A DNA stretch of 64,000 nt from Escherichia coli. GTDB taxonomy: Bacteria; Pseudomonadota; Gammaproteobacteria; Enterobacterales; Enterobacteriaceae. Each line of letters opens with the position of its first letter. Within the stretch, counting starts at the first letter, position 1. A model generated the notes under the pieces. That model searched no databases. It was not told where the DNA came from and saw nothing but the letters and a program-made list of their open reading frames with translations. Shown one piece after another: positions 5,728 to 24,242 of this stretch. Where the stretch lies: the NCBI RefSeq assembly GCF_016903815.1, contig NZ_CP069973.1. The stretch is one strand, 5' to 3'. The translations under genes were made by a program, and so were the position numbers.

Positions 5728-5801
5728 GCGGGGGAAAGAACAATACCGTCGGATCGCCTGCAATCCGACGGCAATATTATAGAATAGCTGAGGGAAACGT
5801 T

Positions 5802-7301
5802 ATGGCAGAGCAATCTTCAGATGTAAAAAATAGTGACAATAGCGCCGGAGGACATAAGCTGGGGCTTATATCCCTCATCGCTATTGTCGTTAGCTCCATG
5901 CTGGGAGGCGGCGTTTTCAGTCTGCCGCAAAACACGGCGGCCTCTTCTGCACTAGGGCCAGTAATCATTGCATGGATTATTGCCGGGATCGGTATTTATT
6001 TTATCGCAAACTCCTTTCGCGTACTATCAGATCTGCGCCCGGACCTTCAGGCTGGAGTGTATATGTATGCCCAGGAAGGTTTTGGTTCCTTTATTGGCTT
6101 TAACGTCGCCTGGGGCTACTGGCTGATGACCGCATTTGGCAACGTTGCCTTTGCGGTAATTTTAATGGATGCTTTTAATCAGTTTATGCCGGGGGTTTTT
6201 ACGGATGGTAATAATCTGAACTCCATTATCTGCGGCTCAGTGCTGATCTGGGGCTATAATTTTCTTGTTCTGTCCGGGACGAAAGTGGCCGGATTTGTTA
6301 ACACCTTGGGAACCATCGCCAAGCTCGTCCCTCTGATCCTATTCGTATTACTGCTGGGTGTGCTGATCGATTATTCGGACCTGTTTAAAAACTTTTGGGG
6401 AGAATCACCCGCGATCCTCAGTGGCAACGGAAATGACGCCGCACCAGTATCGCTGCTGTCTCAGATTCTGGCACCGATGACCGTAACGCTCTGGGCCTTT
6501 ATTGGCGTCGAGGGAGCGGTTGTTCTATCCGGACGTGCCAAAAATAAACAGGACGTAGGGAAAGCCACACTGATCGGCTTTCTGCTGGCGCTAATTATTT
6601 ATATGTTAATGTCCATTCTGCCGTTCGGTGTAATGCCTCAGGCAGAACTAGCGCAGGTCAGTAACCCCTCTACCGCAGGCGTGCTCGCCCACGTTGTCGG
6701 TCAGTGGGGCGACTGGCTGATGAGCGCGGGGCTGATTATTTCTGTTCTGGCCGGCTGGCTTGCCTGGACCATGCTATGCGCTGAAATACCGATGGTAGCA
6801 GGACAGAAAGGCGCTTTCCCGCGCGCGTTTGCCCGAACGAACAGTAAACAGGCGGCCAATGTGTCACTGTGGGTTAGTAGCTTTGTGATGCAGGCGGCCA
6901 TGTTACTTGTTTATTTTTCAAATAATGCTTGGACCACCATGTATAATATCAGTGCGCTGATGGTTGTTCCGGCCTATATTACCACCACGCTGTATCTGAC
7001 CAGTATTTGCAGAAACGGAAAATATGATCAGTATGCAAAAAAAGGCCGCAGGCTGGCTTTGTCCAGCGGTGTTTTAGGCTCGCTATTCTGTCTGTTTATT
7101 CTTTACGCCAGCCAGATTGAGTATGTTGCATTAATTCCTATCCTGTTGACCTGTGGTCTGCCGGTCTTTATCTGGTCAAGAAAAGAAAAAAATGATGGTC
7201 AGCCGATATTTACCAAAAAAGAGCTGATTTATCTGATTATGCTGTTGCTGTGCGATATTATCGTCGTTGCCCTGTTTATTGGTGGATATTTAAAGGTATA
7301 A
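5802..7301 (+). CDS. APC-superfamily basic amino acid/polyamine antiporter, ArcD/YdgI-like (paralog 2)
   Basis: A 499-aa polytopic protein with a GAGGGA SD. It has the canonical KLGLISLIAIVVSSMLGGGVFSLPQN TM1 motif and LWAFIGVEGAVVLSGRAKNKQDVGKAT. By eye it is clearly paralogous to the 1784-3253 product but well diverged. Confidence 0.85.
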   Translation: MAEQSSDVKNSDNSAGGHKLGLISLIAIVVSSMLGGGVFSLPQNTAASSALGPVIIAWIIAGIGIYFIANSFRVLSDLRPDLQAGVYMYAQEGFGSFIGFNVAWGYWLMTAFGNVAFAVILMDAFNQFMPGVFTDGNNLNSIICGSVLIWGYNFLVLSGTKVAGFVNTLGTIAKLVPLILFVLLLGVLIDYSDLFKNFWGESPAILSGNGNDAAPVSLLSQILAPMTVTLWAFIGVEGAVVLSGRAKNKQDVGKATLIGFLLALIIYMLMSILPFGVMPQAELAQVSNPSTAGVLAHVVGQWGDWLMSAGLIISVLAGWLAWTMLCAEIPMVAGQKGAFPRAFARTNSKQAANVSLWVSSFVMQAAMLLVYFSNNAWTTMYNISALMVVPAYITTTLYLTSICRNGKYDQYAKKGRRLALSSGVLGSLFCLFILYASQIEYVALIPILLTCGLPVFIWSRKEKNDGQPIFTKKELIYLIMLLLCDIIVVALFIGGYLKV

Positions 7302-7443
7302 GTCCGAGTTAAATCTTTACTGGGCTAGTAATGCCGCCTTTTAAACAAGAAGGGCGGCAATCTTACTGAAATTAGTATGCTGCAAATCGGTAATGCTGCC
7401 AACTTACTGATTTAGTGTATGATGGTGATTTTAAGGTGCTTGC

Positions 7444-7719
7444 GTGGCTTCCATTTCCATCAGATGTCCTTCCTGCTCCGCTACTGAAGGCGTGGTGCGT
7501 AACGGCAAAAGCACTGCCGGACATCAGCGCTATCTCTGCTCTCACTGCCGTAAAACATGGCAACTGCAGTTCACTTACACCGCTTCTCAACCCGGTACGC
7601 ACCAGAAAATCATTGATATGGCCATGAATGGCGTTGGATGCCGGGCAACTGCCCGCATTATGGGCGTTGGCCTCAACACGATTTTACGTCACTTAAAAAA
7701 CTCAGGCCGCAGTCGGTAA
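7444..7719 (+). CDS. insA: IS1 InsA
   Basis: The 91-aa [94 protein letters not shown] is canonical InsA apart from two N-terminal substitutions. Confidence 0.95.
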
Positions 7720-8141
7720 CCTCGCGCATACAGCCGGGCAGTGACGTCATCGTCTGCGCGGAAATGGGCGAACAGTGGGGCTATGTCGGGGCTAAATCGC
7801 GCCAGCGCTGGCTGTTTTACGCGTATGACAGGCTCCGGAAGACGGTTGTTGCGCACGTATTCGGTGAACGCACGATGGCGACGCTGGGGCGTCTTATGAG
7901 CCTGCTGTCACCCTTTGACGTGGTGATATGGATGACGGATGGCTGGCCGCTGTATGAATCCCGCCTGAAGGGAAAGCTGCACGTAATCAGCAAGCGATAT
8001 ACGCAGCGAATTGAGCGGCATAACCTGAATCTGAGGCAGCACCTGGCACGGCTGGGACGGAAGTCGCTGTCGTTCTCAAAATCGGTGGAGCTGCATGACA
8101 AAGTCATCGGGCATTATCTGAACATAAAACACTATCAATAA
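7638..8141 (+). CDS. insB: IS1 InsB' frame (expressed as the InsAB' transposase by -1 frameshifting)
   Basis: The 167-aa ORF contains ...[48 protein letters not shown]...[13 protein letters not shown]. It overlaps the insA 3' end in the -1 frame. Confidence 0.95.
7695..7701 (+). promoter_or_regulatory. IS1 programmed -1 ribosomal frameshift heptamer (A6C)
   Basis: AAAAAAC lies within TTAAAAAACTCAGG at the insA/insB' overlap. This is the established IS1 frameshift signal. The same motif is present in copy B (complement of 10574-10580). Confidence 0.8.
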
Positions 8142-8156
8142 GTTGGAGTCATTATC

Positions 8157-8966
8157 TAACCGTAGCGTTTATTACGCGCAGGTGACGCGTCCTGTTAATG
8201 TGCAAAGAATTGACTTACGAAGTCGGGTGAGGGCTTTCCATGCTCTCAGTCGTGGCGCAGCCGGTAGCCGTGCAATCAGTCAGATGTTGCGCCAGAGTAG
8301 CGTTGATGCAGGCCGGTGGCTGGCACGACGACTGATGCGGGAATGCGGGCTGACAAGTCGACAGATGGTTAAACATCACTACCGGGTCAACGAAGACAAA
8401 AGTCCGCCATTGCCAAATTTACTGAACCGGCAATTTCACCCCGCCGCACCAGACCGCGTCTGGTGCGGCGACATCAGTTTTATTCGCCTGCATGACAAAT
8501 GGTGTTAGCTCGCGCTCGTTGTTGATTTATATTCACGGCGGATTACCGGTTCAGCCCTCTCATTAACCGCTGATGCTGAGTTGGTGTGTAGGGCTTTGCG
8601 TAATGCACTGGAAACACGATCACGTGATGGCCGTCTGCTGTTTCATTCAGATCAAGGTGTTCAGTATAAAAGCAATAAATACAGAAAGTTACTCTGGCGT
8701 TATGGGGTAATGCAAAGTATGAGTTGCAGAGGGAATGGCCTGGATAATTCGCCGATGGAAAGAGTCTTTCGCAGCCTTAAAAATGAATGGCTTCCGAAAG
8801 GTGGTTATGGTGATTTTATCCATGCGGTACGTGATATAAACCAGTGGATTAATGGTTATTACAACGTTTATCGACCTCACACGAACAACGATGGTTTACC
8901 GCCTTGCTTACATGAAGAAAAGTGGAAACAGGTTATTCCGGTGTCCTGATTTTGTGAACCACTACA
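8157..8966 (+). pseudogene. IS3-family (IS911-like end) transposase OrfB remnant, 5'-truncated by IS1 copy A and carrying an in-frame TAG
   Basis: A single frame reads ...[31 protein letters not shown]...[52 protein letters not shown]...[15 protein letters not shown] (rve/DDE integrase core), with a stop at 8506-8508. No OrfA or left IR is present. The right end TGTAGTGGTTCACAAAATCAGGACACC (complement from 8966) resembles IS911-type TG...CA termini. Confidence 0.75.
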
Positions 8967-9115
8967 ATAATCCTTTTTCACAGACTTGTCAGCAGCCAGC
9001 ATTTATGTTCTTTTACCTGCGGGAATTTATCCGTCTGCCTGTCGGGACTACTCTGTCATACAGAAATCAGGTAGGAATAAATTGTAGTGGAAAGTCGATG
9101 TTTACCGGATGACTG

Positions 9116-9667
9116 ATGCGCGCTTGTACACAGACAGTGTGTTTCAGTAATATGGAGAATAATGAAATGAATAACACAGACACATTAGAAAAAATAATCA
9201 GACACCAAAAAAACAAAGACCCCGCATATCCCTTTCGGGAACATTTGTTGATGCAGCTCTGTATTCGCACAAATAAAAGAATGCAGGATAATATATCTGA
9301 ATTTCTGGGGGCGTATGGAATAAATCACTCAGCATATATGGTTCTCACCACATTATTCGCAGCGGAGAACCATTGTCTGTCACCTTCAGAGATAAGCCAG
9401 AAACTTCAGTTTACCAGAACTAATATTACCCGCATTACAGATTTTTTAGAAAAAGCCGGATATGTAAAAAGGACGGATAGCAGGGAGGATCGCCGTGCTA
9501 AAAAAATCAGTCTGACATCTGAAGGTATGTTTTTTATTCAGAGGCTCACTCTTGCACAAAGCATGTATCTGAAAGAAATCTGGGATTATCTGACTCATGA
9601 TGAACAGGAACTGTTTGAAGTCATTAATAAAAAATTACTGGCACATTTTTCTGATGCCAGCTCATAA
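9116..9667 (+). CDS. MarR-family transcriptional regulator, MprA(EmrR)/PapX-SfaX-like
   Basis: The ORF-track protein is 183 aa. The winged-helix region SPSEISQKLQFTRTNITRITDFLEKAGYVKRTDSREDRRAKKISLTSEG parallels MprA [49 protein letters not shown] (from memory). Alternative in-frame starts are at 9152 and 9167. The 9167 start has GGAG 9 nt upstream and gives 166 aa. Confidence 0.8.
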   Translation: MRACTQTVCFSNMENNEMNNTDTLEKIIRHQKNKDPAYPFREHLLMQLCIRTNKRMQDNISEFLGAYGINHSAYMVLTTLFAAENHCLSPSEISQKLQFTRTNITRITDFLEKAGYVKRTDSREDRRAKKISLTSEGMFFIQRLTLAQSMYLKEIWDYLTHDEQELFEVINKKLLAHFSDASS

Positions 9668-10133
9668 AGTGCGAAATATCTGAGGATGCTGGATAGCTTC
9701 AGGCAAGAGAATAATGATTCTTGCAGATGTGTTTTTCCGGATACAAAAACAAAAGTAAAAAATTGCAGCGCCAGGCCACCTTTCAAAGCAGGGAGGCTTG
9801 TACCGCGTCGAAAATTTCAGCCAGTTAATGTAATTGTCTGAACCAGGCACTTCGCCCGGGCAGGAGAAGGAGCGTGGTTGCGGTCATCCTGTATACTGAA
9901 GTCGTTATGAAGGAATAATACAAATAATTGCCCGTTTTCTCTGTACGATAGAGGCAGGTGTGTATGATTGCATCACTATGTTTTTGTGATATAAAAAACT
10001 AAATGGTGAGATATGCATTTTAAAATATAACAAAAATCACCATGAAATAAGAATAATTATCCACGGAGAACATAAACTGCAGACTGTTACAATGCATGCT
10101 GTTCATCTTGACAATGTCGGTAATGACTCCAAC

Positions 10134-10637
10134 TTATTGATAGTGTTTTATGTTCAGATAATGCCCGATGACTTTGTCATGCAGCTCCACCGATTTTGAG
10201 AACGACAGCGACTTCCGTCCCAGCCGTGCCAGGTGCTGCCTCAGATTCAGGTTATGCCGCTCAATTCGCTGCGTATATCGCTTGCTGATTACGTGCAGCT
10301 TTCCCTTCAGGCGGGATTCATACAGCGGCCAGCCATCCGTCATCCATATCACCACGTCAAAGGGTGACAGCAGGCTCATAAGACGCCCCAGCGTCGCCAT
10401 CGTGCGTTCACCGAATACGTGCGCAACAACCGTCTTCCGGAGCCTGTCATACGCGTAAAACAGCCAGCGCTGGCGCGATTTAGCCCCGACATAGCCCCAC
10501 TGTTCGCCCATTTCCGCGCAGACGATGACGTCACTGCCCGGCTGTATGCGCGAGGTTACCGACTGCGGCCTGAGTTTTTTAAGTGACGTAAAATCGTGTT
10601 GAGGCCAACGCCCATAATGCGGGCAGTTGCCCGGCAT
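10134..10637 (-). CDS. insB: IS1 InsB' frame
   Basis: A 167-aa ORF identical in protein sequence to the copy A InsB' ORF. Confidence 0.95.
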
Positions 10638-10831
10638 CCAACGCCATTCATGGCCATATCAATGATTTTCTGGTGCGTACCGGGTTGAGAAGCGGTGTAA
10701 GTGAACTGCAGTTGCCATGTTTTACGGCAGTGAGAGCAGAGATAGCGCTGATGTCCGGCAGTGCTTTTGCCGTTACGCACCACGCCTTCAGTAGCTGAAC
10801 AGGAGGGACAGCTGATAGAAACAGAAGCCAC
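10556..10831 (-). CDS. insA: IS1 InsA
   Basis: A 91-aa canonical InsA ([21 protein letters not shown]...). Confidence 0.95.
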
Positions 10832-11360
10832 TGGAGCACCTCAAAAACACCATCATACACTAAATCAGTAAGTTGGCAGCATCACCCAATCTGCTGACAG
10901 ACGAAGATAATGAACCCGTTATGGTTTTTAACGGAGAGAGGAATGTACTGGCAGACAGTCTGAAACCACAGCCTCTGATTCTTCCGGTCAAGGGAAAATA
11001 AGCGTAATGTTCATCACCAGATTATGTACGATGAGTTTTCCACTGTTTATAGCAATTATCTTGCTAATAACCAGACAGGAGTAACCAGACCAACCGAAAA
11101 CACCGGGAAGGTGATTACCCGCTGGCAGAGGAAATCCGGTTTTTTTTGATGTCAGCCATAACGTGTTTGACAATAAAGCATCATGAAAGGGTGTTAATGA
11201 GTCCATGGGATAATTCATAAAAATAATTTACTGTGTTATCCTTTTCAAAAGAAATATTCAGAAGATAACCCCTGGCTGACAACCAGGGGAAGGGGGCATT
11301 AACAGTGTTATTATTGGTGAATAAATTATTACTTGTGTGCAGGATACACTAATGCAATAT

Positions 11361-12434
11361 CTACTGATACTGTATGCCAGTATGTTTCATGCCTGCCGCT
11401 GAAAACGGCAATATCCAGGGCCAGACATATTCACCATTCATATTTCTGCATTTCTGTACAATTTTCTCAGAAAGCGTCTCATCAATTCTTTCACGCAACT
11501 TCTCCTGCTGTCTTAAAATACTTTCGCATATTTCGAAATCATCTTCCTGCATCAGCATTTCGGCGCATTTAATGATTTCTGCCCGTTCATGCAGCACAGA
11601 GGAATGATTATAGAGCCAGTTTACAAACAGCAATGCTTCCGGATATTGCCCCCATAACGGGTGGTATGTGGCATAATAATCTTCGGCAGTATCCGGACCG
11701 CCTGAAAAGTTATGCCATACAGCAAGTGGAAATGGATGCAGATTTCCGCACAGTATTTCTGCGATGTAAGTATTTGCCGCAAAGCCGCGACGAAATGCAG
11801 TTGCAGCTTTTACCAGTTCCCCATTAAGAAAATGCAGAAGGCCGAGTTCATACCAGTAAGGTGAAAATTCATCTGCATGTTCCTGCAGTATATGGCGTGC
11901 CTGTTCATGAGCGCCAGTGCGTAACAGTTCCGGTCCCAGTAGCCAGCGTGCACCATGATTATCTTCGGGATTGTAATCCAGTATTTTTTCAATGAGCATG
12001 ATGGCATCCTGATGACGCCGTAAATGTGCATTTGCCAGGATTGCCGCATAGAGGGCACGAAGAAAAGGTCGGTTGTCAGGATGTATCCAGATGATTCTGC
12101 CACTGAAACCTTCAGGGATAAGACGATTGCCAACTGCCAGCCCTTTAAGGGCAGCATTCAGCGCCTTACGCGGGGCATTCTGCTCCAGAAATACGTATGC
12201 CAAGTGAGCGTGTACATCAATAAAGTCATTCTCCTGTCGGGCAAGGCGCCTGAGTTTGTTGATGTAACTTGTTTCGCTGATTTCATCCGCATCGTATGCA
12301 TCAATCAGTTCTTCAAACTCATCCAGCAACGAGCCAAACCAGGTTTCCGGAAATATGAAACAGCCCTGGTTATCGTTCACTTCAAAGCGTAATTTGCCAG
12401 TCATATTCTGAACCTGTAAAAAAGGATGGACCAT
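11361..12434 (-). CDS. Hypothetical helical-repeat (TPR-like) protein, island cargo next to the integrase
   Basis: A 357-aa ORF. Its A/L-rich amphipathic repeats (e.g. AHLAYVFLEQNAPRKALNAALKGL, RALYAAILANAHLRRHQDAIMLIEKILDYNPEDNHGARWLLG, YWYELGLLHFLNGELVKAATAFRRG) look TPR-like. I recognised no catalytic motif. The more likely start is ATG at 12404 (AGG ~10 nt upstream). Confidence 0.6.
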   Translation of the reverse strand: MVHPFLQVQNMTGKLRFEVNDNQGCFIFPETWFGSLLDEFEELIDAYDADEISETSYINKLRRLARQENDFIDVHAHLAYVFLEQNAPRKALNAALKGLAVGNRLIPEGFSGRIIWIHPDNRPFLRALYAAILANAHLRRHQDAIMLIEKILDYNPEDNHGARWLLGPELLRTGAHEQARHILQEHADEFSPYWYELGLLHFLNGELVKAATAFRRGFAANTYIAEILCGNLHPFPLAVWHNFSGGPDTAEDYYATYHPLWGQYPEALLFVNWLYNHSSVLHERAEIIKCAEMLMQEDDFEICESILRQQEKLRERIDETLSEKIVQKCRNMNGEYVWPWILPFSAAGMKHTGIQYQ

Positions 12435-12659
12435 AACCTGCAGGCTATAAAAATTGTGATGCCTGGCATCGGTGTCCTTTTATTGTCCGGGATTAACGTT
12501 GCCCATGATAATACAGTGAATTCTGTTCTGTGGTAAGACGTTGAGTTATTGAATGAGAACCTCAGCCTGGCTGATGGTTCCGCCGGCATAAAAAAGAAAT
12601 TGATTGAGGCGGGTGCTCTTCCCCTTAAGAGGAAGAGCATGTGTGTAAATGGCGTTCAG

Positions 12660-13925
12660 TCACCTTTTCAGTGGATTGTTAACTTTTGCATATTCAAACG
12701 GACTGATACACTCCTCCCTGTTTGCATCCAGAAAATCTGCCCACCATTGCAGCATAAGCCGACGTTCTTCCAGATGTTCTGCTTTATGAATATACGCGGC
12801 ACGTACTCCGTTGCGCTCCTGATGACTCATCTGACGTTCAACCGCATCTCTTGACCATAAGCCGGATTCAATCAATGCACTGCACGCCATCGCCCGGAAT
12901 CCATGGCCACAGACTTCCTTGGTTGTGTCATACCCCATCACCCTCAGGGCTTTATTTACAGTATTTTCACTGATTGGTTTACGCGGGTCATGTGCACCCG
13001 TAAATATCAGACCATTTTCACCTGCCCATGTCTGAAGTTCTGTCAGTATGGCTACAGCCTGTTTACTGAGTGGCACAAGATGTGGTGTCCGCATCTTGGA
13101 GCCCCGGTGTGAGAATTTTACGCCAGGCAGAGGTTCGCGTTCGGCTGGAATAGTCCACATGGCATTGTCAATATCAATTTCAGACCAGCGGGCATATCTG
13201 AGTTCACTGGAACGAATAAAAACCAGTAAATTCAGCATAACGGCAAGCCGGGTGACAGGCTGGCCTTTATAACCGTCAATACGCGACAGAAGTTCAGGCA
13301 GGCGTGAAAGATTCAGAGCGGGGCGATGCTGGCGTTTTACCGTGGTCAATGCACCAGCCATATCCAGAGCCGGGTTATATCTGATGATGCCAGACTGTAC
13401 GGCGTAACGCATTACAGCAGATATTCTTTGCTGCAGACGACTAGCGATTTCATAAATTTGTTTTGCTTCTGCAGCACGAACAGGGATAAGCAGGTCCGGG
13501 GTATTGAGTGTTGTGATATCCCGGTTGCCGATAAAGGGGAAAACGTGTGTCTCGAGGCTTTTGAGTACTTTATCGCTGTGTGATTGTGCCCATTGTTTAT
13601 TACTGGCATGCCAGCGTCGTGCAATATGTTCAAAAGAGAGCTGTAAATCAGGGACTACTTTTTTAACTCTTTTCTGTTCGCAAGGGTCAATCCCCTCTGA
13701 AATCAGTTTTCGGGCCTCATCCCGTTTTGTACGAGCTTCGGAGAGAGAAACTTCTGGATACACACCAAGTGCCAGAGTCTTCTCCTTACCCAGAATACGA
13801 TAACGGAGACGCCAGTAACGGGAACCATTAGGATGAACCAGCAGGAACATGCCGGCCCCGTCAGTGAGTTTATAAGCCTTGTCAGTGGGCTTTGCAGCCC
13901 GGATTTTTGCGTCAGTCAGTGCCAT
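12660..13925 (-). CDS. int: P4/CP4-57-type tyrosine integrase
   Basis: A 421-aa ORF MALTDAKIRAAKPTDKAYKLTDGAGMFLLVHPNGSRYWRLRYR... (typical P4-integrase N-terminus). The C-terminal catalytic region has HGFRAMA...RAAYIH. It lies directly beside the 3' end of tRNA-Phe in the same orientation. Confidence 0.92.
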   Translation of the reverse strand: MALTDAKIRAAKPTDKAYKLTDGAGMFLLVHPNGSRYWRLRYRILGKEKTLALGVYPEVSLSEARTKRDEARKLISEGIDPCEQKRVKKVVPDLQLSFEHIARRWHASNKQWAQSHSDKVLKSLETHVFPFIGNRDITTLNTPDLLIPVRAAEAKQIYEIASRLQQRISAVMRYAVQSGIIRYNPALDMAGALTTVKRQHRPALNLSRLPELLSRIDGYKGQPVTRLAVMLNLLVFIRSSELRYARWSEIDIDNAMWTIPAEREPLPGVKFSHRGSKMRTPHLVPLSKQAVAILTELQTWAGENGLIFTGAHDPRKPISENTVNKALRVMGYDTTKEVCGHGFRAMACSALIESGLWSRDAVERQMSHQERNGVRAAYIHKAEHLEERRLMLQWWADFLDANREECISPFEYAKVNNPLKR

Positions 13926-14084
13926 AGTTCAGCCTTCTGAATGCGTTAAAGAGGGTATAAATTCTGTCGAACTGGGGTATGCCCACAATTATACCCACAC
14001 AATGAGGTTGATGTGGGGGGAATCTGGTTGAGTTCGGTAGAATTGATTTGGAGGCAGGACGCTTAAATCGTGGCGTCCTGGAAT

Positions 14085-14111
14085 GAAAAACGGACCTCCG
14101 TGGAGGTCCGT
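14085..14111 (-). terminator. Rho-independent terminator downstream of tRNA-Phe
   Basis: On the minus strand, the hairpin CGGACCTCCACGGAGGTCCG is followed by TTTTT, 12 nt after the tRNA 3' end. Confidence 0.7.
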
Positions 14112-14122
14112 TGATATGAATT

Positions 14123-14198
14123 TGGTGCCCGGACTCGGAATCGAACCAAGGACACGGGGATTTTCAATCCCCTGCTCTACCGACTGAGCTATCCGGGC
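14123..14198 (-). tRNA. pheU: tRNA-Phe (GAA)
   Basis: The minus strand reads GCCCGGATAGCTCAGTCGGTAGAGCAGGGGATTGAAAATCCCCGTGTCCTTGGTTCGATTCCGAGTCCGGGCACCA, which is E. coli tRNA-Phe with encoded CCA. Its position next to yjdC-dsbD identifies it as pheU. Confidence 0.97.
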
Positions 14199-14304
14199 AA
14201 CGGGGCGCATTAAACCGTAATCTGCACATCTCGTCAACCTAATTTCAGTAAAAGCGATTCAACTGCTTAAGATTGCGGCAAATCGCTTCTTTTCTGTGTT
14301 TCTG

Positions 14305-14904
14305 TCAGGTCAAAGCACCACCCTGGCGGCAGCGGGCGAAGCGCAGGATATCTTCCGCCAGCCGATGTGCGGTGTCGACATCCGCCTGGCTACGATTCAC
14401 CAGCATTCGGCTTAAACAGCCTTCCAGCACCAGTTCCATCTGCTTTGCTACCATCGCCGGATCGTCAACTTCCAGTGTGGTTAACAGTTCGTGGGTGAAA
14501 TCGTAGGCCGCGCTTTTTTGCTGATCGGCCAGTTGATGAATAGGGTGGCCAGGATCGGGATAAAACGTACAGGCAGCGATAAACAGACAGCCCGGATAGC
14601 GGTTGTTTTTAACGCACTCCGATAACGCCTGATAACGTGCCAGCAACTTTTGTTCGGCGGTTTGCGTTTCGTCCAGCATCAGCTGACGACGCCAGACATC
14701 TATCTGTTGGCTAAGATAACGCAGCGCATCGTAGAGGATTGCCTCTTTGTCTGGCCAGAAGCGGCGTAGCTCGTCCAGTGGATAATCCACACGTTCAGCA
14801 ACCATCTCCAGCGTGGTGTTGGCAATCCCTTGTAATTCTAATAATTTCAGGGCTTCTCCCAGTACATCTTCACGTTGCACGCTATTTTCCTCCGTCTTTC
14901 CCAC
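14305..14904 (-). CDS. yjdC: TetR-family transcriptional regulator YjdC
   Basis: The ORF-track protein ...[53 protein letters not shown]... matches K-12 YjdC. The K-12-type GTG start is at 14880 (191 aa). Confidence 0.9.
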
Positions 14905-14916
14905 TGCAAGTGTCGT

Positions 14917-16614
14917 TCACGGTTGGCGATCGCGCAAATGTGCGCTGAAGGTTTCAGCATCCATAAAGCCCGTGACGCGTGCTTGTGGATGCTCCTGGCC
15001 TTGTCCGTCAAAAAAGAGAATTGTCGGTAGGCCAAGGACATTAAGATGCTTTAACAGCGCCACATCTTGTGCGTCGTTGGCAGTGACGTTGGCCTGAAGT
15101 AATACCGTGTCTGCTAACGCTTTTTGCACCTGCGGGTCGCTGAAGGTGTATTTCTCAAACTCTTTACAGGCGACGCACCAGTCGGCATAGAGATCTAACA
15201 TCACTGGTTTGCCTTTGGCTTCAACGAGCGCCTGATTTAACTCATCTACCGTTTTGATTTGTGTAAAGTTGAGATGCGTCTGAGTTTGCGCGGTATGCGT
15301 CGCACCAAATGCCCAATCCTGAAGTGGGCGCACGCTAACCAATGCCGCTGCCAGCAGGATTATTTGCACCACGCGCATCCAGCCGCGTTTGGCCTGTAGG
15401 CTGGTGATAAAGGCCCAGCCAAAGAATGCGACACCAAGCGCCGACCACAAGCGTAATCCCCATATATCACCAATCACTCGCTCCAGCAGGAAGACCGGCA
15501 GTGCGAGGATCACAAAACCAAACGCGGTTTTGACTTGTTCCATCCACGGGCCGCTTTTCGGCAGCAAGCGGTTACCAAAGACGGTAATTAGCATCAGCGG
15601 CAGGCCCATGCCCAACGCATAGAGATAAAGCGTGCCGCCCCCCAGCCACATGTTCCCGCTTTGGGCGATATACAGCAGAATCGCGCTAAGCGGTGCGGTG
15701 GTGCATGGTGAACAGATCAGTCCGGCAATCGCCCCCATAACAAACACACCGCCAGGTGAGCCGCCCTGTTGGCGATTGCTCATCAGCGTGAGACGTGTTT
15801 GCAGCGAAGAGGGGAGTTGCAGAGTAAACAAGCCAAACATTGACATCGCCAGCAAGGTAAAGACGATAGCGAGGCCAATGAGCACGTATGGGTGCTGTAG
15901 CGCCGCCTGGAACTGTAACCCTGCGGCGGCAACCACCAGACCCAGTGCCGTGTAAGTCAGCGCCATCCCCTGCACATAAATAAAGGTCAGCAACAATGCT
16001 CTGGCAGTGGAGAGCCGCTGTTTACCGCCCAGCACGATACCAGAAATCAGTGGGTACATTGGCAGCACGCATGGCGTAAAGGCGATACCAATACCGATCA
16101 ACAACGCCCAGAGCGCGGAAAAGGGCAATTGCGCGGTGGGCTGCTCTTGCTGCGGAACAGACACAGGCTGTGACGCTGCGTTGTTGGCGACCACTTCGCT
16201 TAACGGAACGGTTTTGGTTTCTGGCGGATAACAGAAACCGGCATCAGCACAGCCCTGGTAGGTGATAGTTAACGTCGCTCCCGCACTCGCCTGGTTGATG
16301 GTGACGGGAAGCGTCAGCCGATCGCGGTAAATCTCGCTTTTGCCGTAAAACTCATCTTCATGCCAGACGCCTTGCGGCAGCTGCACGTCGGCAATTTTCG
16401 CGTGTTCCGGCGTAATGCGGATCTGTTTACGGTAGAGGTAGTAACCGTCTTTGATCTGCCAGGTCAGATTCAGGTCATGTTGGTTTTGCTGAAAATCAAA
16501 AGCAAAGGCTTGATCCGCGGGGACAAATTGTGAACGTCCCGGCGCGTCGAATAATCCGGCAAAAACGGAAGTGCTGCAAAGTAGCAGGATCAGCGTAAAG
16601 ATGCGTTGAGCCAT
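14917..16614 (-). CDS. dsbD: Thiol:disulfide interchange protein DsbD
   Basis: Matches K-12 DsbD from [20 protein letters not shown] (565 aa). The ORF-track start 81 nt further upstream was rejected. The gene overlaps the cutA 3' end by 25 nt. Confidence 0.95.
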
Positions 16615-16928
16615 GAGAGGTAATCTGTGTCTCCGTGTGTAACAGGTAAAACCAGAAGTTCCGGGGTTTGATATGGATGATGAGACTTCAGGCATTCCAG
16701 CAGTGCCTGCTGGTGAGATACGGTAGTTTTTAAAATCATCTGCACTTCGTATTCTTGCTCCAGCTTACCTTCCCAGTAATAGAGAGAGGTAGCGCCGGGG
16801 ATCAAGGTCGCGCAGGCCGCCAGTTTTTCCGCCAGCACTTTGGCGGCTAAATCCTGGGCTGTCGCTTCATCCGGTGCCGTACATAGCACCACGACAGACG
16901 CGGTATTCGAACTTTTTTCATCAAGCAT
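16590..16928 (-). CDS. cutA: Divalent-cation tolerance protein CutA
   Basis: [45 protein letters not shown]... is K-12 CutA (112 aa). Confidence 0.95.
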
Positions 16929-17042
16929 AAACACCTCGCAAGAACAGATGGAACCGCAAGAGAGAGGTCACTATACAACGGACGGGGGAAGGATGTTAGT
17001 CGGCGGGAAAGAAAGCGGGGCCTGAAGCCCCGCGATTGGTCA

Positions 17043-18344
17043 TTACAGCATGAAGCTACCCAGCACGAAGCCGAAGCAAACGGCAAGGGCAACACCCAGA
17101 GTACCCGGGATGAAGAACGGATGGTTGAAGACGAATTTACCGATACGGGTAGTACCCGTGTCATCCATCTGTACCGCAGCAACCAGCGTCGGGTAGGTTG
17201 GCAGAATGAACAGACCAGACACCGCAGCGAAAGAAGCAACAGCGGTCAGCGGAGAAACGTTCAGTGCCAGAGCCATCGGCATCAGTGCTTTTGCGGTTGC
17301 AGCCTGAGAGTACAGCAGAGCAGAAGCAAAGAAGAAGATGACGGCCAGCAGCCACGGATGACCCTGAATCACTTCACCAGCGGTATCTTTGATCCAGTCG
17401 ATGTTGTTGGAAACGAAAGTATCGCCCAGCCATGCAACACCCAGGATACAAATACAGGCGCTCATACCTGCTTTGAAGGTGCTGGAGTTGAGGATGTTGT
17501 CGGTATCGACTTTACAGATAACGGTGGTCAGAGTTGCAACGCTGAGCATGATGATCAGGATTGCGTTGGTGGTGTTCATCAGCGGTTTTTCAACCAGACC
17601 CATGCTTGGGCTGTTGATGATTGCATAGATAACAACGCCAACTACGCCCAGCAGGAACAGCCAGACGGACGTTTTTGCACCGGATTTGATTTCAATCTGC
17701 TTTTCACCGCGCAGTTCAACCAGGCCTTCTTCCAGACGCTTGCGATAAATCGGATCGTCAGAGAGTTTGGAGTTGAACAGCATAGTGACCAGGAAGGACA
17801 TCACCAGAACCGCCAGCAGGGTGGACGGGATGACCACGGAGAGCAGATGGAGGTAGCTGATGCCATGACCTTCCATTACGGAAGACATGTAAACCACTGC
17901 CGCTGAGATTGGCGATGCGGTGATCGCAATCTGCGCGGATACCACTGCAGTAGACAGCGGACGGCAAGGTTTAACGCCTTGTTCCTTCGCAACTTCAGCG
18001 ATAACTGGCAGTGTCGCCAGAGAGATGTTGCCAGTACCAGCAAAGATAGTCAGGAAATAGGTCACGATCGGTGCGAGGATCGTGATGTATTTCGGGTTAC
18101 GGCGCAGCAGCTTTTCTGTCTGATGAACCAGATAGTCCAGACCGCCAGCAACCTGCATGGCAGAAATAGCGGCGATAACCGCCATGATAATGGAAATGAC
18201 ATCGAACGGGATGTTACCGGGTTTAACGCCAATAGCGGCAAGAACCAGCACCCCCAATCCGCCTGCAAAACCAATACCTATTCCCCCCAATCTGGCGCCC
18301 AAGAAGATCGCCAGCAAAACTATGATGAGTTCTACAACTAGCAT
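17043..18344 (-). CDS. dcuA: Anaerobic C4-dicarboxylate transporter DcuA
   Basis: A 433-aa polytopic protein in the conserved aspA-dcuA arrangement. Confidence 0.95.
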   Translation of the reverse strand: MLVVELIIVLLAIFLGARLGGIGIGFAGGLGVLVLAAIGVKPGNIPFDVISIIMAVIAAISAMQVAGGLDYLVHQTEKLLRRNPKYITILAPIVTYFLTIFAGTGNISLATLPVIAEVAKEQGVKPCRPLSTAVVSAQIAITASPISAAVVYMSSVMEGHGISYLHLLSVVIPSTLLAVLVMSFLVTMLFNSKLSDDPIYRKRLEEGLVELRGEKQIEIKSGAKTSVWLFLLGVVGVVIYAIINSPSMGLVEKPLMNTTNAILIIMLSVATLTTVICKVDTDNILNSSTFKAGMSACICILGVAWLGDTFVSNNIDWIKDTAGEVIQGHPWLLAVIFFFASALLYSQAATAKALMPMALALNVSPLTAVASFAAVSGLFILPTYPTLVAAVQMDDTGTTRIGKFVFNHPFFIPGTLGVALAVCFGFVLGSFML

Positions 18345-18408
18345 ATTAGCCTTCCTTGTTTTTTAACAAGTTGATATTAGATTGTTATTTTTAAGTTACT
18401 GCTCACAA

Positions 18409-18442
18409 GAAAAAAGGCACGTCATCTGACGTGCCTTTTTTA
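18409..18442 (-). terminator. Bidirectional rho-independent terminator after aspA
   Basis: The hairpin AGGCACGTCAGATGACGTGCCT is flanked by an A-run and a T-run (AAAAAAGGCACG...CGTGCCTTTTTT). Confidence 0.75.
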
Positions 18443-18461
18443 TTTGTACTACCCTGTACGA

Positions 18462-19898
18462 TTACTGTTCGCTTTCATCAGTATAGCGTTTTGCTTTGTA
18501 AGCCGGGTGCATCAGATTCTGTACGGAGAAAATATCGTCAAGTTCCGCTTCAGTCAACAGACCGCGTTCCAGAACGACTTCACGTACACTCTTACCGGTT
18601 TCGGCACAGATTTTACCCACGATGTCACCGTTGTGGTGACCGATGAACGGGTTCAGGTAAGTAACGATACCGATAGAGTTGTAAACGTAACCTTCGCACA
18701 CTTCTTTGTTAGCAGTGATGCCGTTAATGCATTTTTCCAGCAGGTTGTAGCAAGCGTTGGTCAGAATGTGAACGGATTCGAACATAGCCTGGCCAATGAC
18801 CGGCTCCATAACGTTCAACTGCAGCTGACCTGCTTCTGCTGCCATGGTAACAGTGGTGTCGTTACCGATGACTTTGAAGCATACCTGGTTAACCACTTCC
18901 GGAACAACCGGGTTTACTTTAGCTGGCATGATGGAAGAGCCCGCCTGCAGTTCCGGCAGGTTGATCTCGTTCAGGCCGGCACGTGGACCAGAAGAGAGCA
19001 AGCGCAGGTCGTTACAGATTTTGGACATCTTCACAGCCAGGCGTTTCAGCGCGCCGTGAACCATTACATAAGCGCCGCAGTCAGAGGTCGCTTCGATCAG
19101 GTCTTCAGCCGGTACGCATGGGAAGCCAGTGACTTCAGCCAGTTTTTTCACTGCCAGCGGAGAGTACTCTTTCGGCGTGTTCAGACCAGTACCGATTGCT
19201 GTTGCGCCAAGGTTAACTTCCAGCAGCAGTTCAGCGGTACGTTGGATATTTTTCACTTCTTCTTTCAGCAGGATGCTGAAAGCGCGGAATTCCTGACCGA
19301 GGGTCATCGGTACTGCGTCCTGCAGCTGGGTACGACCCATTTTCAGGATGTCCTGGAATTCGACAGCTTTACGTTCAAAGCCTTCACGCAGTTGGTTAAT
19401 CGCATCTACCAGCTTAATCAGGGAAGAGTAAACTGCGATACGGAAACCGGTCGGGTAGGCGTCGTTAGTGGACTGACATTTGTTAACATGGTCGTTCGGG
19501 TTCAGGTACTGATATTCACCTTTCTGGTGACCCATCAGTTCCAGACCGATATTGGCCAGCACTTCGTTGGTGTTCATGTTTACGGAAGTACCTGCGCCGC
19601 CCTGGTAGACGTCTACCGGGAACTGATCCATGCATTTTCCGTTGTTCAGGACTTCATCACATGCGGCAATGATGGCATTCGCTACACTTTTAGGAATGGT
19701 TTGCAGCTCTTTGTTTGCCATAGCTGCGGCTTTTTTAACCATTACCATACCGCGAACAAATTCAGGAATATCACTGATTTTGTTGTTGCTGATATAGAAG
19801 TTTTCAATCGCTCTCAGAGTGTGAACACCATAGTAGGCATCAGCTGGAACTTCCCTGGTACCCAACAGATCTTCTTCGATACGAATGTTGTTTGACAT
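18462..19898 (-). CDS. aspA: Aspartate ammonia-lyase
   Basis: Matches K-12 AspA from [34 protein letters not shown] (478 aa). The ORF track starts 45 nt too far upstream. Confidence 0.97.
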
Positions 19899-20085
19899 GT
19901 GAACCTTCTTTTTCAAGCTGCCAATGATTTGCTTTAAACACACAGAATATATGTGGTTTCGAATGTTTTTCGACCGACGATTATCCCCTGCATCGACCGA
20001 ATACCCGAGATCATATGCTGCTTGAGGATTTCTACCGTAATCTGGATCACTTTAAGTGTCGGTTTTTACCCCTTAATTATTAATT

Positions 20086-20101
20086 TGTGAAATAGATCAC
20101 C
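20086..20101. promoter_or_regulatory. CRP-like binding site upstream of aspA
   Basis: TGTGAAATAGATCACC fits TGTGA-N6-TCACA, ~190 nt upstream of the aspA start. aspA is known to be CRP-activated. Confidence 0.4.
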
Positions 20102-20234
20102 GCTTTGGGATTACTACCAAAAATAGTTGCGCAAACATCTTGAAATTTTGCTAATGACCACAATATAAGCTGAACGCGATTCGCAACCCATTCAGGTAGC
20201 CGGGGTTAACCGGCTGCTATTACAGGAGAAACCT

Positions 20235-20711
20235 TTGCGCTGGTTACCTTTTATTGCCATTTTCCTTTATGTCTATATTGAGATTTCAATCTTTATTCAG
20301 GTTGCCCATGTATTGGGGGTATTGCTGACCCTCGTGCTGGTTATATTCACGTCAGTTATCGGTATGTCACTGGTACGTAACCAGGGCTTTAAGAATTTCG
20401 TGCTGATGCAGCAAAAAATGGCGGCGGGTGAAAACCCAGCGGCGGAGATGATTAAAAGTGTTTCGCTGATCATTGCCGGTTTGCTGCTTTTATTACCGGG
20501 CTTTTTCACCGACTTCCTTGGTCTTCTGCTTTTATTACCGCCGGTGCAAAAGCATCTGACAGTGAAGTTGATGCCACATTTGCGCTTTTCTCGCATGCCA
20601 GGCGGCGGTTTTAGCGCCGGGACCGGTGGCGGTAATACTTTTGATGGTGAGTACCAGCGAAAGGATGATGACCGCGACCGCCTTGATCATAAAGACGATC
20701 GCCAGGATTAA
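20235..20711 (+). CDS. fxsA: Inner-membrane protein FxsA
   Basis: 158 aa, MRWLPFIAIFLYVYIEISIFIQVAHVLG..., with a TTG start preceded by AGGAGA. Confidence 0.93.
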   Translation: MRWLPFIAIFLYVYIEISIFIQVAHVLGVLLTLVLVIFTSVIGMSLVRNQGFKNFVLMQQKMAAGENPAAEMIKSVSLIIAGLLLLLPGFFTDFLGLLLLLPPVQKHLTVKLMPHLRFSRMPGGGFSAGTGGGNTFDGEYQRKDDDRDRLDHKDDRQD

Positions 20712-20726
20712 TGTCGAAACGCCGGA

Positions 20727-21983
20727 TTATGTGGTTATGCCATTTTCCGGCGTTTTTCGTTTTGGCAGAAACAGCCATAACCCCGCCAGCATGATCAGCG
20801 CATAGAGACTTTTCCAGCCGACCATTGCCAGTAACAGAACGCATAACAGCCCGCCAACCACCGCCAGTAGTCGATAACGTCCTTGCAATAATTTACAGCC
20901 TGCCAGCATGCATAACAGATAAATCATAATAAAGATGCCATTGGCATAGATGATAAGTGCGTCCAGATTGATCTCTAAAGCATGAATCACCAACGTGCTC
21001 ACCACGCAGCAGCCGAGCACCGCATTGAGGGCATTATTCGGGATATGACGAGAAGAGAGGCGTGCCAGGTAGTGGTCAGGATTATGTTGCGCCTGCGACC
21101 AGACCAGGCGGGCGAAGCTCTGTATATAAATGTTGAGGCTGGCAAAGCAGGCCAGATAGCCAATCACGCAGGCAATCCATAACGCTCCTACACCGAACAA
21201 CTGCACTACAATTTTTGGAAGCGATGCTGCTGCCGCCATTTGTTCACCATAGGCGTCGAAGTGTAAGACGACTACCGTACAGCCCCAGTAGACTAATCCT
21301 GCCAGCAGCAGACCAATCATCAAAGCACGAGGAAAATCACGCTCTGGATTTTTAAATTCCGAGGCAAGATGGGCAAATGCTTCCAGACCGACAAAGCACC
21401 AGAACATCACTGATAACGCAGCAAATAACCCGGTAAGTTCGATATTACCAGGTGCAGGGAAGGGGATATTCGCAGGTTTGATATCGCCCGCCCACCAGAT
21501 AGCGACAATCAGCGCGACGATAAGTCCGGCAATAACTGTTTGTAGATTAGCACTGGAACTAGCACCGCGAGTACCGATATACCACACCAGCGCCAGCGTA
21601 CCGAGTTCTGCCAACAACAGTTGCCAGCTATGCCAGCCAAACATTGCCTGGCCGAACCCGGCGGCAATTTGTAGCGCGGCAGGCAAACCCACGGGAATGA
21701 CCGATAAAAACAACCAGCCGGTGACTCGCTCAAGCCGCGAACCAAACGCCATACCGACGAAGTGCGCGACACCGCCTGCGCTGGGATAGTGGCGACCCAG
21801 AATCGCAAACACAATCGCAATCGGGAACACTAAGATAATCAAAACGGGCCACGCCCACAGGCTGTTATTGCCCGCTACCAGCGCAGCTAACGCAGGAACG
21901 GCAAACACGCCAGTGCCTAATAATGACGTCGATAGCAGGCCAATGCCCTGGGCCAGCCCCAGTTCTTGTTTGAGTCTACTCAT
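20727..21983 (-). CDS. yjeH: L-methionine/branched-chain amino acid exporter YjeH
   Basis: Matches K-12 YjeH from MS(R)LKQELGLAQGIGLLSTSLLGTGVFAVPALAA (418 aa). Confidence 0.93.
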   Translation of the reverse strand: MSRLKQELGLAQGIGLLSTSLLGTGVFAVPALAALVAGNNSLWAWPVLIILVFPIAIVFAILGRHYPSAGGVAHFVGMAFGSRLERVTGWLFLSVIPVGLPAALQIAAGFGQAMFGWHSWQLLLAELGTLALVWYIGTRGASSSANLQTVIAGLIVALIVAIWWAGDIKPANIPFPAPGNIELTGLFAALSVMFWCFVGLEAFAHLASEFKNPERDFPRALMIGLLLAGLVYWGCTVVVLHFDAYGEQMAAAASLPKIVVQLFGVGALWIACVIGYLACFASLNIYIQSFARLVWSQAQHNPDHYLARLSSRHIPNNALNAVLGCCVVSTLVIHALEINLDALIIYANGIFIMIYLLCMLAGCKLLQGRYRLLAVVGGLLCVLLLAMVGWKSLYALIMLAGLWLFLPKRKTPENGITT

Positions 21984-22145
21984 GGGTTGATGTCCGATTG
22001 CGCCCAAATTATGGGCAACTGCGTAGATTTTCGATGGTAGCACAATCAGATTCGCTTATGACGGTGATGAAGAAATTGCGATGAAATGTGAGGTGAATCA
22101 GGGTTTTCACCCGATTTTGTGCTGATCAGAATTTTTTTTCTTTTT

Positions 22146-22179
22146 CCCCCTTGAAGGGGCGAAGCCTCATCCCCATTTC
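22146..22179 (+). promoter_or_regulatory. sigma32 heat-shock promoter of groSL
   Basis: CCCCCTTGAA-N15-CCCCATTTC matches the sigma32 consensus (CTTGAA / CCCCATNT), ~80 nt upstream of groS. Confidence 0.8.
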
Positions 22180-22207
22180 TCTGGTCACCAGCCGGGAAAC
22201 CACGTAA

Positions 22208-22552
<345 letters not shown>

Positions 22553-22583: not shown

Positions 22584-24242
<1,659 letters not shown>

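Follow-up and report, generated by a model that had tools for sequence, protein, structure and literature searches.

The pheU-integrase junction of Escherichia coli ST405 as the probable attL end of a 74.9-kb mosaic genomic island

The interval from 12660 to 14198 of the window, a 64,000-nt stretch of Escherichia coli DNA (contig NZ_CP069973.1), is very probably the attL and integrase end of a 74.9-kb mosaic GI-pheU in E. coli ST405, a member of the P4-integrase tRNA-Phe family. The sequence-only reading had described an intact tRNA-Phe gene, its own terminator, and an intact P4-type integrase on one strand and had taken their junction for one end of a P4-integrase island at pheU; all of this was confirmed, the end being the integrase/attL end. 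The locus was recognized as pheU from its right-hand neighbors, dicD-dsbD-cutA-dcuA-aspA. The junction is composed of the following features.

14305-14880, minus strand: dicD (yjdC), the first core-genome gene right of pheU
14123-14198, minus strand: pheU, intact tRNA-Phe(GAA) gene (ARAGORN; 76/76 nt identical to K-12 pheU)
14123-14145, minus strand: attL core, the final 23 nt of the tRNA gene, TTCGATTCCGAGTCCGGGCACCA
14084-14112, minus strand: pheU intrinsic terminator, with a 10-bp stem, a 4-nt loop, and TTTTTC
13978-13999, minus strand: two tandem arm-type repeats with a 12-nt period, TGTGGGTATA and TGTGGGCATA, upstream of int
12660-13925, minus strand: int, full-length P4-family tyrosine recombinase of 421 aa (Pfam, P4 Int alignment)
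12846-12945, no strand: homologous-recombination breakpoint within int (differences per 100-nt bin in a three-way alignment)

The terminator hairpin has a ΔG of −17.6 kcal/mol (z = −4.06), and none of 200 shuffles was as good. This copy of the terminator is contiguous with the island integrase, and a further copy follows attR at the far end; the 114 nt downstream of the two cores agree at 103 positions. The region from 14009 to 14122, which comprises the terminator and the integrase-promoter arm, is identical at 109 of 114 positions to the K-12 sequence downstream of pheU. The earlier statement that all DNA left of 14122 is foreign to K-12 was thus slightly overstated, and IS1 and IS3 are likewise families that K-12 has. 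K-12 derivatives match the window at 14009 to 14320 only. The GC content ranges from 0.40 to 0.54 in 1-14000 and from 0.46 to 0.54 in 14001-24000; the mean of the former is lower, and the ranges overlap.

The start codon of int (13925) lies 197 nt from the tRNA end (14123), and both genes are on the minus strand. The encoded protein contains the domains Arm-DNA-bind_3 (PF13356, E = 1e-29), Phage_int_M (PF22022, E = 1.2e-27), and Phage_integrase (PF00589, E = 1.3e-17), all with scores above the gathering thresholds. It shares 226 of 410 residues (55%; E = 4e-174) with Int of phage P4, and all six catalytic residues (R238, K277, H341, R344, H368, and Y378) are present and align with identical residues in P4 Int. 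The identity is 99% (416/420) to the integrase at pheU of enteroaggregative E. coli (EAEC) 042 and 42% to the selC integrase of CFT073. Judged by its architecture, full-length homology, and catalytic residues, the predicted protein can be classified as a P4-family (Arm-DNA-bind_3/DUF4102-type) integrase. Its predicted recombinase activity is supported indirectly, in that one island is found at both pheU and pheV, each time bounded by clean junctions.

The arrangement of the putative att sites resembles that of satellite phage P4, in which Int is of the same length class, the core is likewise the 3′ end of a tRNA gene, and tandem 12-bp arm repeats flank the core on both sides at nearly the same distances. 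The integrase-side repeats are 124 nt from the core, compared with 113 nt for the P4 attP repeats TTGGGGGCATAA TTGGGGGCATCT, and at the far end of the island a matching tandem pair lies 53 nt past attR, compared with 54 nt in P4. The arm-type motif was derived from the sites themselves, so that its statistics are weak (5 matches in the window versus 1.96 expected), and the case therefore rests on the tandem spacing and position. No sigma-70-like site emerged from a promoter scan of the stretch from the arm repeats to the ATG of int, and no int promoter is claimed. As in P4, which has a small AlpA/Vis-type helix-turn-helix (HTH) protein, an AlpA-family HTH protein is encoded within the island and is a candidate excisionase. 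However, P4 uses leuX, whereas the present island targets tRNA-Phe. The annotation of the 75 kb in strain 7/2 lists neither alpha, sid, psu, delta, cI, or epsilon of P4 nor any genes for conjugation or for P4 replication or packaging. With its 75 kb of metabolic and accessory cargo, the element is a genomic island rather than a satellite phage.

Within 1-14122, the sequence-only reading had spotted no repeat of the tRNA 3′ end, and this held in both a search of the window allowing up to three mismatches and an indel-tolerant local alignment: the best same-strand alignment within 1-14122 scored 12.5, compared with 20.5 for the true attR outside the window. Two weak att-like alignments were discarded, one at 1318-1349 of the window (plus strand) inside IS1, which has the wrong orientation, and one at L001 7071-7108, which sits inside IS2. 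The left part of the island lies outside the window and was deduced from public genomes of identical sequence. Positions 1-14400 have 100% matches in at least 18 complete E. coli chromosomes; the best 25 complete genomes are 99.9 to 100% identical, 18 of them listed at full score, and a single base differs between strain 7/2 and positions 1-31400. AR_0015, which is among the 100% matches, is the reference genome of ST405, a multidrug-resistant lineage. In strain 7/2, the att repeats are 74,928 bp apart, which bears out the proposal that the island runs past the left edge of the window, and window position 1 corresponds to coordinate 60,807 of the 74,951 of the island. The attR, about 74.9 kb to the left, is 22 nt long and equals the tRNA 3′ end without one G (22 of 23 nt). 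Because it differs by a deletion, a mismatch-only search over the neighboring 98 kb of strain 7/2 returned no match, and the site was located by reading the cadC-proximal sequence and by indel-tolerant alignment. Past attR, strain 7/2 carries a K-12-type terminator, the integrase relic yjdQ, and cadC, and this junction aligns with K-12. The island size was about 74.9 kb in 25/25 of the best-matching complete genomes, and in the same 25 the span from cadA to dicD was 80,964 to 81,027 bp.

The site is variably occupied. In K-12, cadC adjoins pheU, as had been stated, at a distance of 616 nt with the yjdQ relic in between, and EAEC 042 carries a different, 117-kb island. Considering the integrase 3′ of the tRNA gene, the direct repeat (with attR taken from the identical genomes), and the variable site, the element appears to belong to the GI-pheU/pheV islands. 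Among 5426 complete genomes, int plus tRNA-Phe is covered to at least 80% in 3334, and the int-pheU-dicD junction is at least 99% identical in 115 genomes, which is the better estimate of the number of pheU copies; the 162 genomes that cover at least 80% of positions 1-14400 may include pheV copies and were left out of this estimate. The finding is an ordinary one, a textbook island end from an established kind of element at an established hotspot, in the well-sequenced clinical lineage ST405.

The part of the cargo within the window is arranged as follows.

10988-12434, minus strand: tetratricopeptide-repeat (TPR) protein and 76-aa ORF, the conserved integrase-proximal module
7444-10831, no strand: IS-rich stretch (strain 7/2 annotation)
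10134-10831, minus strand: IS1A
9116-9667, plus strand: MarR-family regulator (Pfam match)
8158-8949, plus strand: IS3 fragment
7444-8141, plus strand: IS1
1784-7301, plus strand: cargo module of antiporter, decarboxylase, and antiporter
5802-7301, plus strand: antiporter
3358-5727, plus strand: Orn/Lys/Arg-family decarboxylase, 789 aa
1784-3253, plus strand: antiporter
838-1531, minus strand: frameshifted IS1
1-219, minus strand: alcohol-dehydrogenase gene fragment

In the integrase-proximal module, the TPR protein is annotated at 11361-12404, with the ORF extending to 12434, and the 76-aa ORF lies at 10988-11218. This module is covered to at least 80% in 1721 genomes and adjoins tyrosine recombinases in most of the rows that match the integrase end of the query; in CFT073 it adjoins the selC integrase. 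The IS-rich stretch runs in the opposite orientation to its counterpart in the pheV copies, and IS elements and pseudogenes are heavy across the whole island. The decarboxylase/antiporter module is found at 99% identity or more in 494 of 5426 genomes (about 9%), at several island loci, and the literature search yielded nothing specific on it.

According to the descriptions of known systems, the island shares features with several of them. The GI-pheV islands (PMC11537424) likewise carry the integrase directly 3′ of tRNA-Phe, a 23-bp direct repeat of the tRNA end, modular IS-bounded cargo, and a far-end yee/CP4-44-like module, and they are also about 75 kb in size; the attR variant TTCGATTCCGAGTCCGG-CACCA is listed for many of them (PMC11537424). 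However, the present island is at the paralogous pheU, the 5′ three quarters of its recombinant int and its attL arm are of the pheU-resident (042) type, and its cargo (the grp microcompartment, psuKG, and the decarboxylase/antiporters) is outside the modules discussed in that work. Our initial expectation was a variant of the pheU pathogenicity island of EAEC 042, a 117-kb element with the aai/Sci type VI secretion system (T6SS) and pic, as reported by Dudley et al. (2006; cited in PMC2808357). The two have in common the insertion site, the 22-nt attR, the yjdQ relic on the cadC side, the int-tRNA spacer (196/197 identical), and collinear backbone blocks with the yee module, a 3′-5′ exonuclease, ImpA/VasL relics, ibrAB-like genes, and PerC. 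However, only 17.7 kb (24%) is common to both, with identities of 86 to 99%, and both T6SS clusters and pic of EAEC 042 are absent from the present island, which contains relics only and different cargo instead.

Closer matches to the cargo were found in GI-selC of CFT073 and in GI-pheV of TCM3e1. In the former (about 68 kb), 47.3 kb (63%) of the present island is collinear, mostly at about 99% identity, including the grp microcompartment locus and the IS1-bounded decarboxylase module (window 1-8164), and the TPR module is in common at 90% identity. This island differs in being at tRNA-Sec with a distant, selC-type integrase, and its arrangement was found in only 6 genomes. The match in TCM3e1 is nearly complete: the island at pheV matches 73.9 of the 74.95 kb at 99.7 to 99.97% identity and shares the 22-nt attR, with the identity beginning at the first base of attR. 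In 22AR0747, the 10 kb of the pheV island closest to the tRNA agree with the present island in gene order and in the integrase protein. It had been stated that the inference on the island extent would fail if related genomes carried the same DNA without the integrase at another locus. Formally this is the case, as the DNA does occur elsewhere, as a whole at pheV and for most of the cargo at selC, with an integrase each time; this shows mosaicism and mobility and leaves the claim on the island extent unrefuted.

The int gene itself is a recombinant. To the right of the breakpoint, on the tRNA side, it is of the EAEC 042 pheU type, with 6 differences from 042 between 14145 and about 12946, compared with 43 from the pheV island, whereas to the left it is identical to the pheV island copy, with no differences between 12845 and 12346, compared with 256 from 042 (differences were counted in 200-nt as well as 100-nt bins). 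The first approximately 330 codons and the attL arm are thus of the 042-pheU type and the rest of the pheV-island type; at the protein level, the parental integrases share about 98% identity. We infer that the island came by site-specific integration beside, or in place of, a 042-like pheU island and that a crossover in int followed, either as an int-int deletion within a tandem array or through a short imported recombination tract.

The integration itself can be pictured as follows. Int would bind the arm-type repeats and the core and recombine the attP core carried by the island (TTCGATTCCGAGTCCGG-CACCA) with a tRNA-Phe gene at its identical 3′ end. This would rebuild the tRNA gene, which would gain the island-borne copy of the terminator, and would leave the displaced core copy, attR, 75 kb off, where it adjoins the terminator of the ancestral site, the relic yjdQ, and the intact cadCBA operon. 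The predicted order left of the window is cargo, TTCGATTCCGAGTCCGGCACCA, terminator, yjdQ relic, and cadC-cadB-cadA, and the predicted attP reads ...GAAATT-TTCGATTCCGAGTCCGG-CACCA-AATTCATATC... The strand exchange probably took place within GCACCA, the last 5 to 6 nt of the tRNA, because the one-G deletion is always found on the side of the island and the flanks change over directly after CCA. A tentative and rather doubtful extension is that the chimeric int records an island replacement, in which the 74-kb island, excised from pheV or brought in by a donor, would have integrated site-specifically into a 042-like island already resident at pheU, using its attR, with the attP core lacking one G placing the exchange in GCACCA; recombination between the two directly repeated int genes would then have deleted the old cargo, so that the attL arm and the int 5′ part of the old island became joined to the int 3′ part and cargo of the new one.

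The boundaries drawn above compete with two readings of the cadC side. That a small island of at most 14 kb ends inside the window, with the DNA further left being a separate and unrelated insertion, could be argued from the three IS1 copies and the IS3 fragment in the 14 kb beside int, which could mark independent insertions, and from the decarboxylase module, which is IS1-bounded and found at other loci too. It is extremely improbable, however, since 1-14122 lacks an att repeat even when indels are allowed, the sole attR lies 74.9 kb off and directly abuts the K-12-type flank, and the whole 74-kb block recurs at pheV between the same two repeats. Nearly as improbable is the deletion or inactivation of cadCBA beside pheU as a pathoadaptive change of the Shigella/enteroinvasive E. 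coli (EIEC) type, which has in its favor that cad is missing from the window and nothing more. In strain 7/2, where intactness was judged by length and pseudogene flags, cadA, cadB, and cadC are 2148, 1335, and 1539 nt long, as in K-12, without a pseudogene flag; in the other 24 of the 25 best genomes under a match covering the whole cad/far-end query, where only gene names were read, all three are annotated. By these measures, neither deletion nor IS disruption nor a rearrangement inactivating cadA, cadB, or cadC (the cad "black hole") was found in strain 7/2 and these 24 genomes, and the intergenic region from cadC to the core is identical to K-12 at 595 of 616 positions. The annotation of cad in 25/25 of the best genomes, together with its full length in strain 7/2, indicates that cadCBA was most probably pushed about 75 kb away rather than deleted, and the Shigella/EIEC framing of the sequence-only reading is inapplicable to a sequence of the ST405 extraintestinal pathogenic E. 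coli (ExPEC) lineage in which the cad genes are present.

Two further alternatives concern how the 74.9-kb island arrived and whether it still moves. The cargo could have reached pheU by purely homologous replacement of a 042-like island without an Int step, through a double crossover in int and in the yee module at the far end. There is a clear homologous breakpoint inside int, and module exchange by recombination is common in such islands (PMC11537424). We nevertheless regard this route as unlikely. At the far end, the match to the pheV island sets in precisely with attR, from its first base on, without a difference over 500 nt, and the 042 island reaches an identity of only about 90% there, so that no second homologous breakpoint is visible inside the island. 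In addition, a donor island at pheV is without homology to the cadC-side flank. Somewhat more weight, though short of an even chance, can be given to a fossil junction, in which the island is now fixed and the full-length int no longer mediates excision and is without present function. In its favor, the span does not change across 25 genomes, int combines parts of two alleles, the load of IS elements and pseudogenes is heavy, and attR is one base shorter than attL, a single repeat mismatch having cut island deletion by orders of magnitude in a study as cited in PMC11537424. However, all catalytic residues and the three domains of int are intact, both arm-type repeat pairs are kept at the P4 spacing, and the parental integrases differ little in protein. 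Moreover, the same GG attR occurs in the pheV copy and in the 042 pheU island, so that it looks like a native attP core rather than decay, and an island 99.9% identical at two attB sites implies recent site-specific movement.

The analysis maps GI-pheU of ST405 precisely, including both of its att arms. The decarboxylase/antiporter module may deserve separate work as a candidate acid-resistance system. A single 74-kb island is found at pheU, at pheV, and, for most of its cargo, at selC in different lineages, and the breakpoint in int shows how cargo and integrase/att modules get reassorted. If the tentative replacement route were general, int-int recombination in tandem arrays would explain how tRNA-Phe islands exchange whole cargoes while each locus keeps its own integrase allele.

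At the integrase end of the island lie the following elements.

14123-14198, minus strand: tRNA-Phe(GAA), called by ARAGORN
14084-14112, minus strand: GC-rich 10-bp hairpin followed by TTTTTC, directly downstream of the tRNA on the same strand
13978-13999: tandem arm-type repeats TGTGGGTATA and TGTGGGCATA, upstream of int, with a 12-nt period, 124 nt from the core (the tRNA 3' end)
12660-13925, minus strand: int ORF, 421 aa, 197 nt from the tRNA end

The tRNA is identical to K-12 pheU at 76/76 positions, and its right-hand neighbors, dicD(yjdC)-dsbD-cutA-dcuA-aspA, stand in K-12 order, which identifies it as pheU rather than its twin pheV. The hairpin has a folding energy of −17.6 kcal/mol (z-score −4.06), a value that none of 200 shuffled sequences equalled. 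Int carries the Arm-DNA-bind_3, Phage_int_M, and Phage_integrase domains, is 55% identical to the phage P4 integrase over 410 residues (E 4e-174), and retains R238, K277, H341, R344, H368, and Y378. The tRNA, terminator, and integrase described at this place in the sequence-only reading are thus borne out by tRNA calling, hairpin folding, domain content, and P4 homology.

With up to 3 mismatches allowed, the 64-kb window has a single copy of the 23-nt tRNA 3' end, and indel-tolerant local alignment gave nothing convincing in 1-14122, in agreement with the earlier statement that no second copy lies there. The inference that the island continues past the left edge was also correct: in strain 7/2 (NZ_CP023820.1), which differs from window 1-31400 by one base, foreign DNA runs 74.9 kb leftward and ends at attR, TTCGATTCCGAGTCC-GGCACCA, the tRNA 3' end minus one G of GGG. 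Because attR differs by a deletion, it was missed by the mismatch search and was found by reading the sequence and by gapped alignment. Each of the 25 best-matching complete E. coli chromosomes shows 99.9-100% identity to window 1-14400, and 18 are listed with the full score. The genomes identical over this stretch include AR_0015 (CP024862), which serves as the ST405 reference (PMC9045447). This identity places the window in the ST405 (phylogroup D) extraintestinal lineage, not in Shigella/EIEC.

The sequence-only reading left undecided whether cadCBA had been displaced or deleted. Beyond attR in strain 7/2, the terminator region occurs a second time, followed in K-12 order by the yjdQ relic and then cadC, cadB, and cadA; from cadC to the core, 595 of 616 nt are identical to K-12, and each of the three cad genes matches its K-12 counterpart exactly in length and has no pseudogene flag. 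The cad/far-end block was matched at full length in all 25 best-matching genomes, with cadA, cadB, and cadC annotated and a cadA-to-dicD span of 80,964-81,027 bp. The cad genes have therefore been moved about 75 kb away and not lost in the ST405 lineage, and the parallel drawn earlier with cad loss in Shigella/EIEC does not apply.

The yjdQ relic, the remains of an older P4-like integrase, lies between cadC and the pheU core.

5460-5812 of L002 (strain 7/2): yjdQ relic
6192-6354 of L003 (K-12): yjdQ relic

In both K-12 and ST405 it is decayed and has a terminator of its own as well as a single arm-type repeat. Its presence in both indicates that pheU was used by a P4-like element before the present island came. 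The core and the 114 nt downstream of it (103/114 identical at the two ends) form an imperfect direct repeat of about 137 nt which, since the older relic was already present in K-12, in effect flanks the island. It is conceivable that the island could also be lost through this repeat in a RecA-dependent manner.

We compared attL and attR at pheU with the junctions of the TCM3e1 pheV and EAEC 042 pheU islands, with K-12 pheU as the unoccupied site. In the three islands, GGG is always on the tRNA side and GG always in the far-end repeat, and island-type flank gives way to chromosome-type flank directly after CACCA, most clearly at pheV, whose chromosomal flank is unrelated. The simplest reading of these alignments is that the attP core of the island is natively one G short and that strand exchange would occur within the last 5-6 nt, GCACCA. 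The same one-G-deleted attR has also been given for many pheV islands in a survey of GI-pheV (PMC11537424). Past attR, at a distance of 53 nt, the far end carries a second tandem arm-type pair. In phage P4, the tandem 12-bp arm repeats on the int side (TTGGGGGCATAA and TTGGGGGCATCT) stand 113 nt away from the core, and a further pair on the opposite side is 54 nt away from it; the island thus retains both arms of a P4-style attP. Encoded in mid-island is an AlpA-family protein that is a candidate for the role of excisionase or regulator of the P4-type integrase. The annotation of the island in strain 7/2 includes neither conjugation genes nor genes for P4 replication or packaging.

26620-26853 of L002 (strain 7/2), plus strand: AlpA-family HTH protein, 77 aa (PF05930, E 2e-10)

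Difference counts in 100-nt bins revealed a sharp switch within int. From the core to about 12946, covering the attL arm and the first ~330 int codons, there are 6 differences from 042 pheU against 43 from the near-identical island at pheV in TCM3e1, whereas the 500 nt leftward of 12845 show 0 differences from the pheV island and 256 from 042. At the other end, the match to the pheV island is perfect from the first attR base on (0 differences in 500 nt), and the flank outside attR is of the pheU/042 type. Hence the far junction is clean and site-specific, whereas the integrase-side one contains a homologous-recombination breakpoint within int, at about 12846-12945. Two histories fit. The element may have integrated at attR of a resident 042-like island, after which recombination between the two int genes deleted the old cargo; or it may have integrated into pheU, after which a short homologous import replaced dicD-pheU-arm-int 5'. 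In either case int has kept a full-length ORF, and its two parental proteins show about 98% identity.

Integrase and tRNA-Phe junctions of this family are very common: of 5426 complete E. coli genomes, 3334 cover the int-tRNA query to at least 80%, with ~92-100% identity and at either pheU or pheV; the exact junction at ≥99% identity is carried by only 115. The closest relative is the GI-pheV of TCM3e1 (73,598 bp), which is bounded by the same repeats and is 99.7-99.97% identical across 73.9 of 74.95 kb; besides substitutions, it is set apart by an inserted IS2 and by the inversion of a segment between two inverted IS1 copies. In 22AR0747, the 10 kb nearest pheV has the same gene order and integrase protein as the ST405 island. 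The EAEC 042 pheU island has a closely similar integrase (416/420 identical; int-tRNA spacer 196/197) and measures 117,181 bp between the repeats shared with the ST405 island, in agreement with the published 117 kb, but of the cargo the two have only 17.7 kb (24%) in common. The ST405 island lacks both T6SS clusters and pic of 042 and keeps only ImpA/VasL relics. The integrase-proximal ~15 kb of the 042 island (L004 3638-14148) encodes a DEAD/DEAH helicase, two DNA methyltransferases, an S8 peptidase, an AAA ATPase, and an SNF2 protein. This helicase/methyltransferase cluster, which the ST405 island does not have, looks like a phage-defence cassette. The CFT073 selC island is collinear with the ST405 island over 47.3 kb (63%), mostly at ~99% identity, including the grp glycyl-radical propanediol microcompartment locus and window 1-8164, but its integrase is only 42% identical to int. 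The sequence-only reading named the same DNA lying without the integrase at another locus as something that would refute its inference. The DNA does recur elsewhere, which formally answers to this, but integrase and att sites always accompany it, so that the recurrence indicates mobility and mosaicism rather than a wrong boundary.

To the left of int in the window lie the following segments.

1784-7301, plus strand: IS1-bounded module of an antiporter (489 aa), an Orn/Lys/Arg-family decarboxylase (789 aa), and a second antiporter (499 aa)
~7389-10886: IS1, IS3 fragment, MarR-family regulator (9116-9667), and IS1A, inverted relative to the pheV copies in TCM3e1 and 22AR0747
10988-12434, minus strand: conserved integrase-proximal module of a TPR-repeat protein and a 76-aa ORF with no Pfam match

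The decarboxylase is nearest to AdiA but, at 740 bits, stays far below the 1167-bit equivalog cut-off; among solved structures, AdiA chains match it best (E about 1e-190). The antiporters resemble ArcD (TIGR00905), with scores under every specific equivalog cut-off. Of 5426 complete E. coli genomes, 494 carry this module at ≥99% identity; the islands that contain it lie at pheU, pheV, and selC, and one lies beside phoH/efeUOB. A literature search found no paper on the module. The orientation of the second segment is consistent with inversion between its two oppositely oriented IS1 copies. The TPR module is at least 80% covered in 1721 complete genomes and adjoins pheV-, pheU-, and selC-type integrases; it may serve as a recombination "handle" for the exchange of cargo between islands.

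The part of the island outside the window was read in strain 7/2.

Within L002 30110-50000 and L001 1-846: complete grpA-S glycyl-radical propanediol microcompartment locus

The locus is broken by a reverse-transcriptase/maturase fragment. Also in these stretches are psuK/psuG, accompanied by a nucleoside transporter; ibrAB-like genes, accompanied by PerC; a group II intron (ltrA); and T6SS relics (ImpA and VasL), one of which IS2 interrupts. On the chromosomal side of the window, a tRNA trio is ordinary; it is the glyV-glyX-glyY cluster of K-12.

43772-44191, plus strand: three tandem tRNA-Gly(GCC) genes; the core genome of EAEC 042 has the same three-gene tRNA-Gly cluster at this position

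The island is well delimited and belongs to a familiar kind of element, at a hotspot that is equally well known. The GI-pheV-type family and its modular, recombination-driven evolution have already been described (PMC11537424), and the chimeric int and the inferred position of the crossover are minor additions to this known picture.
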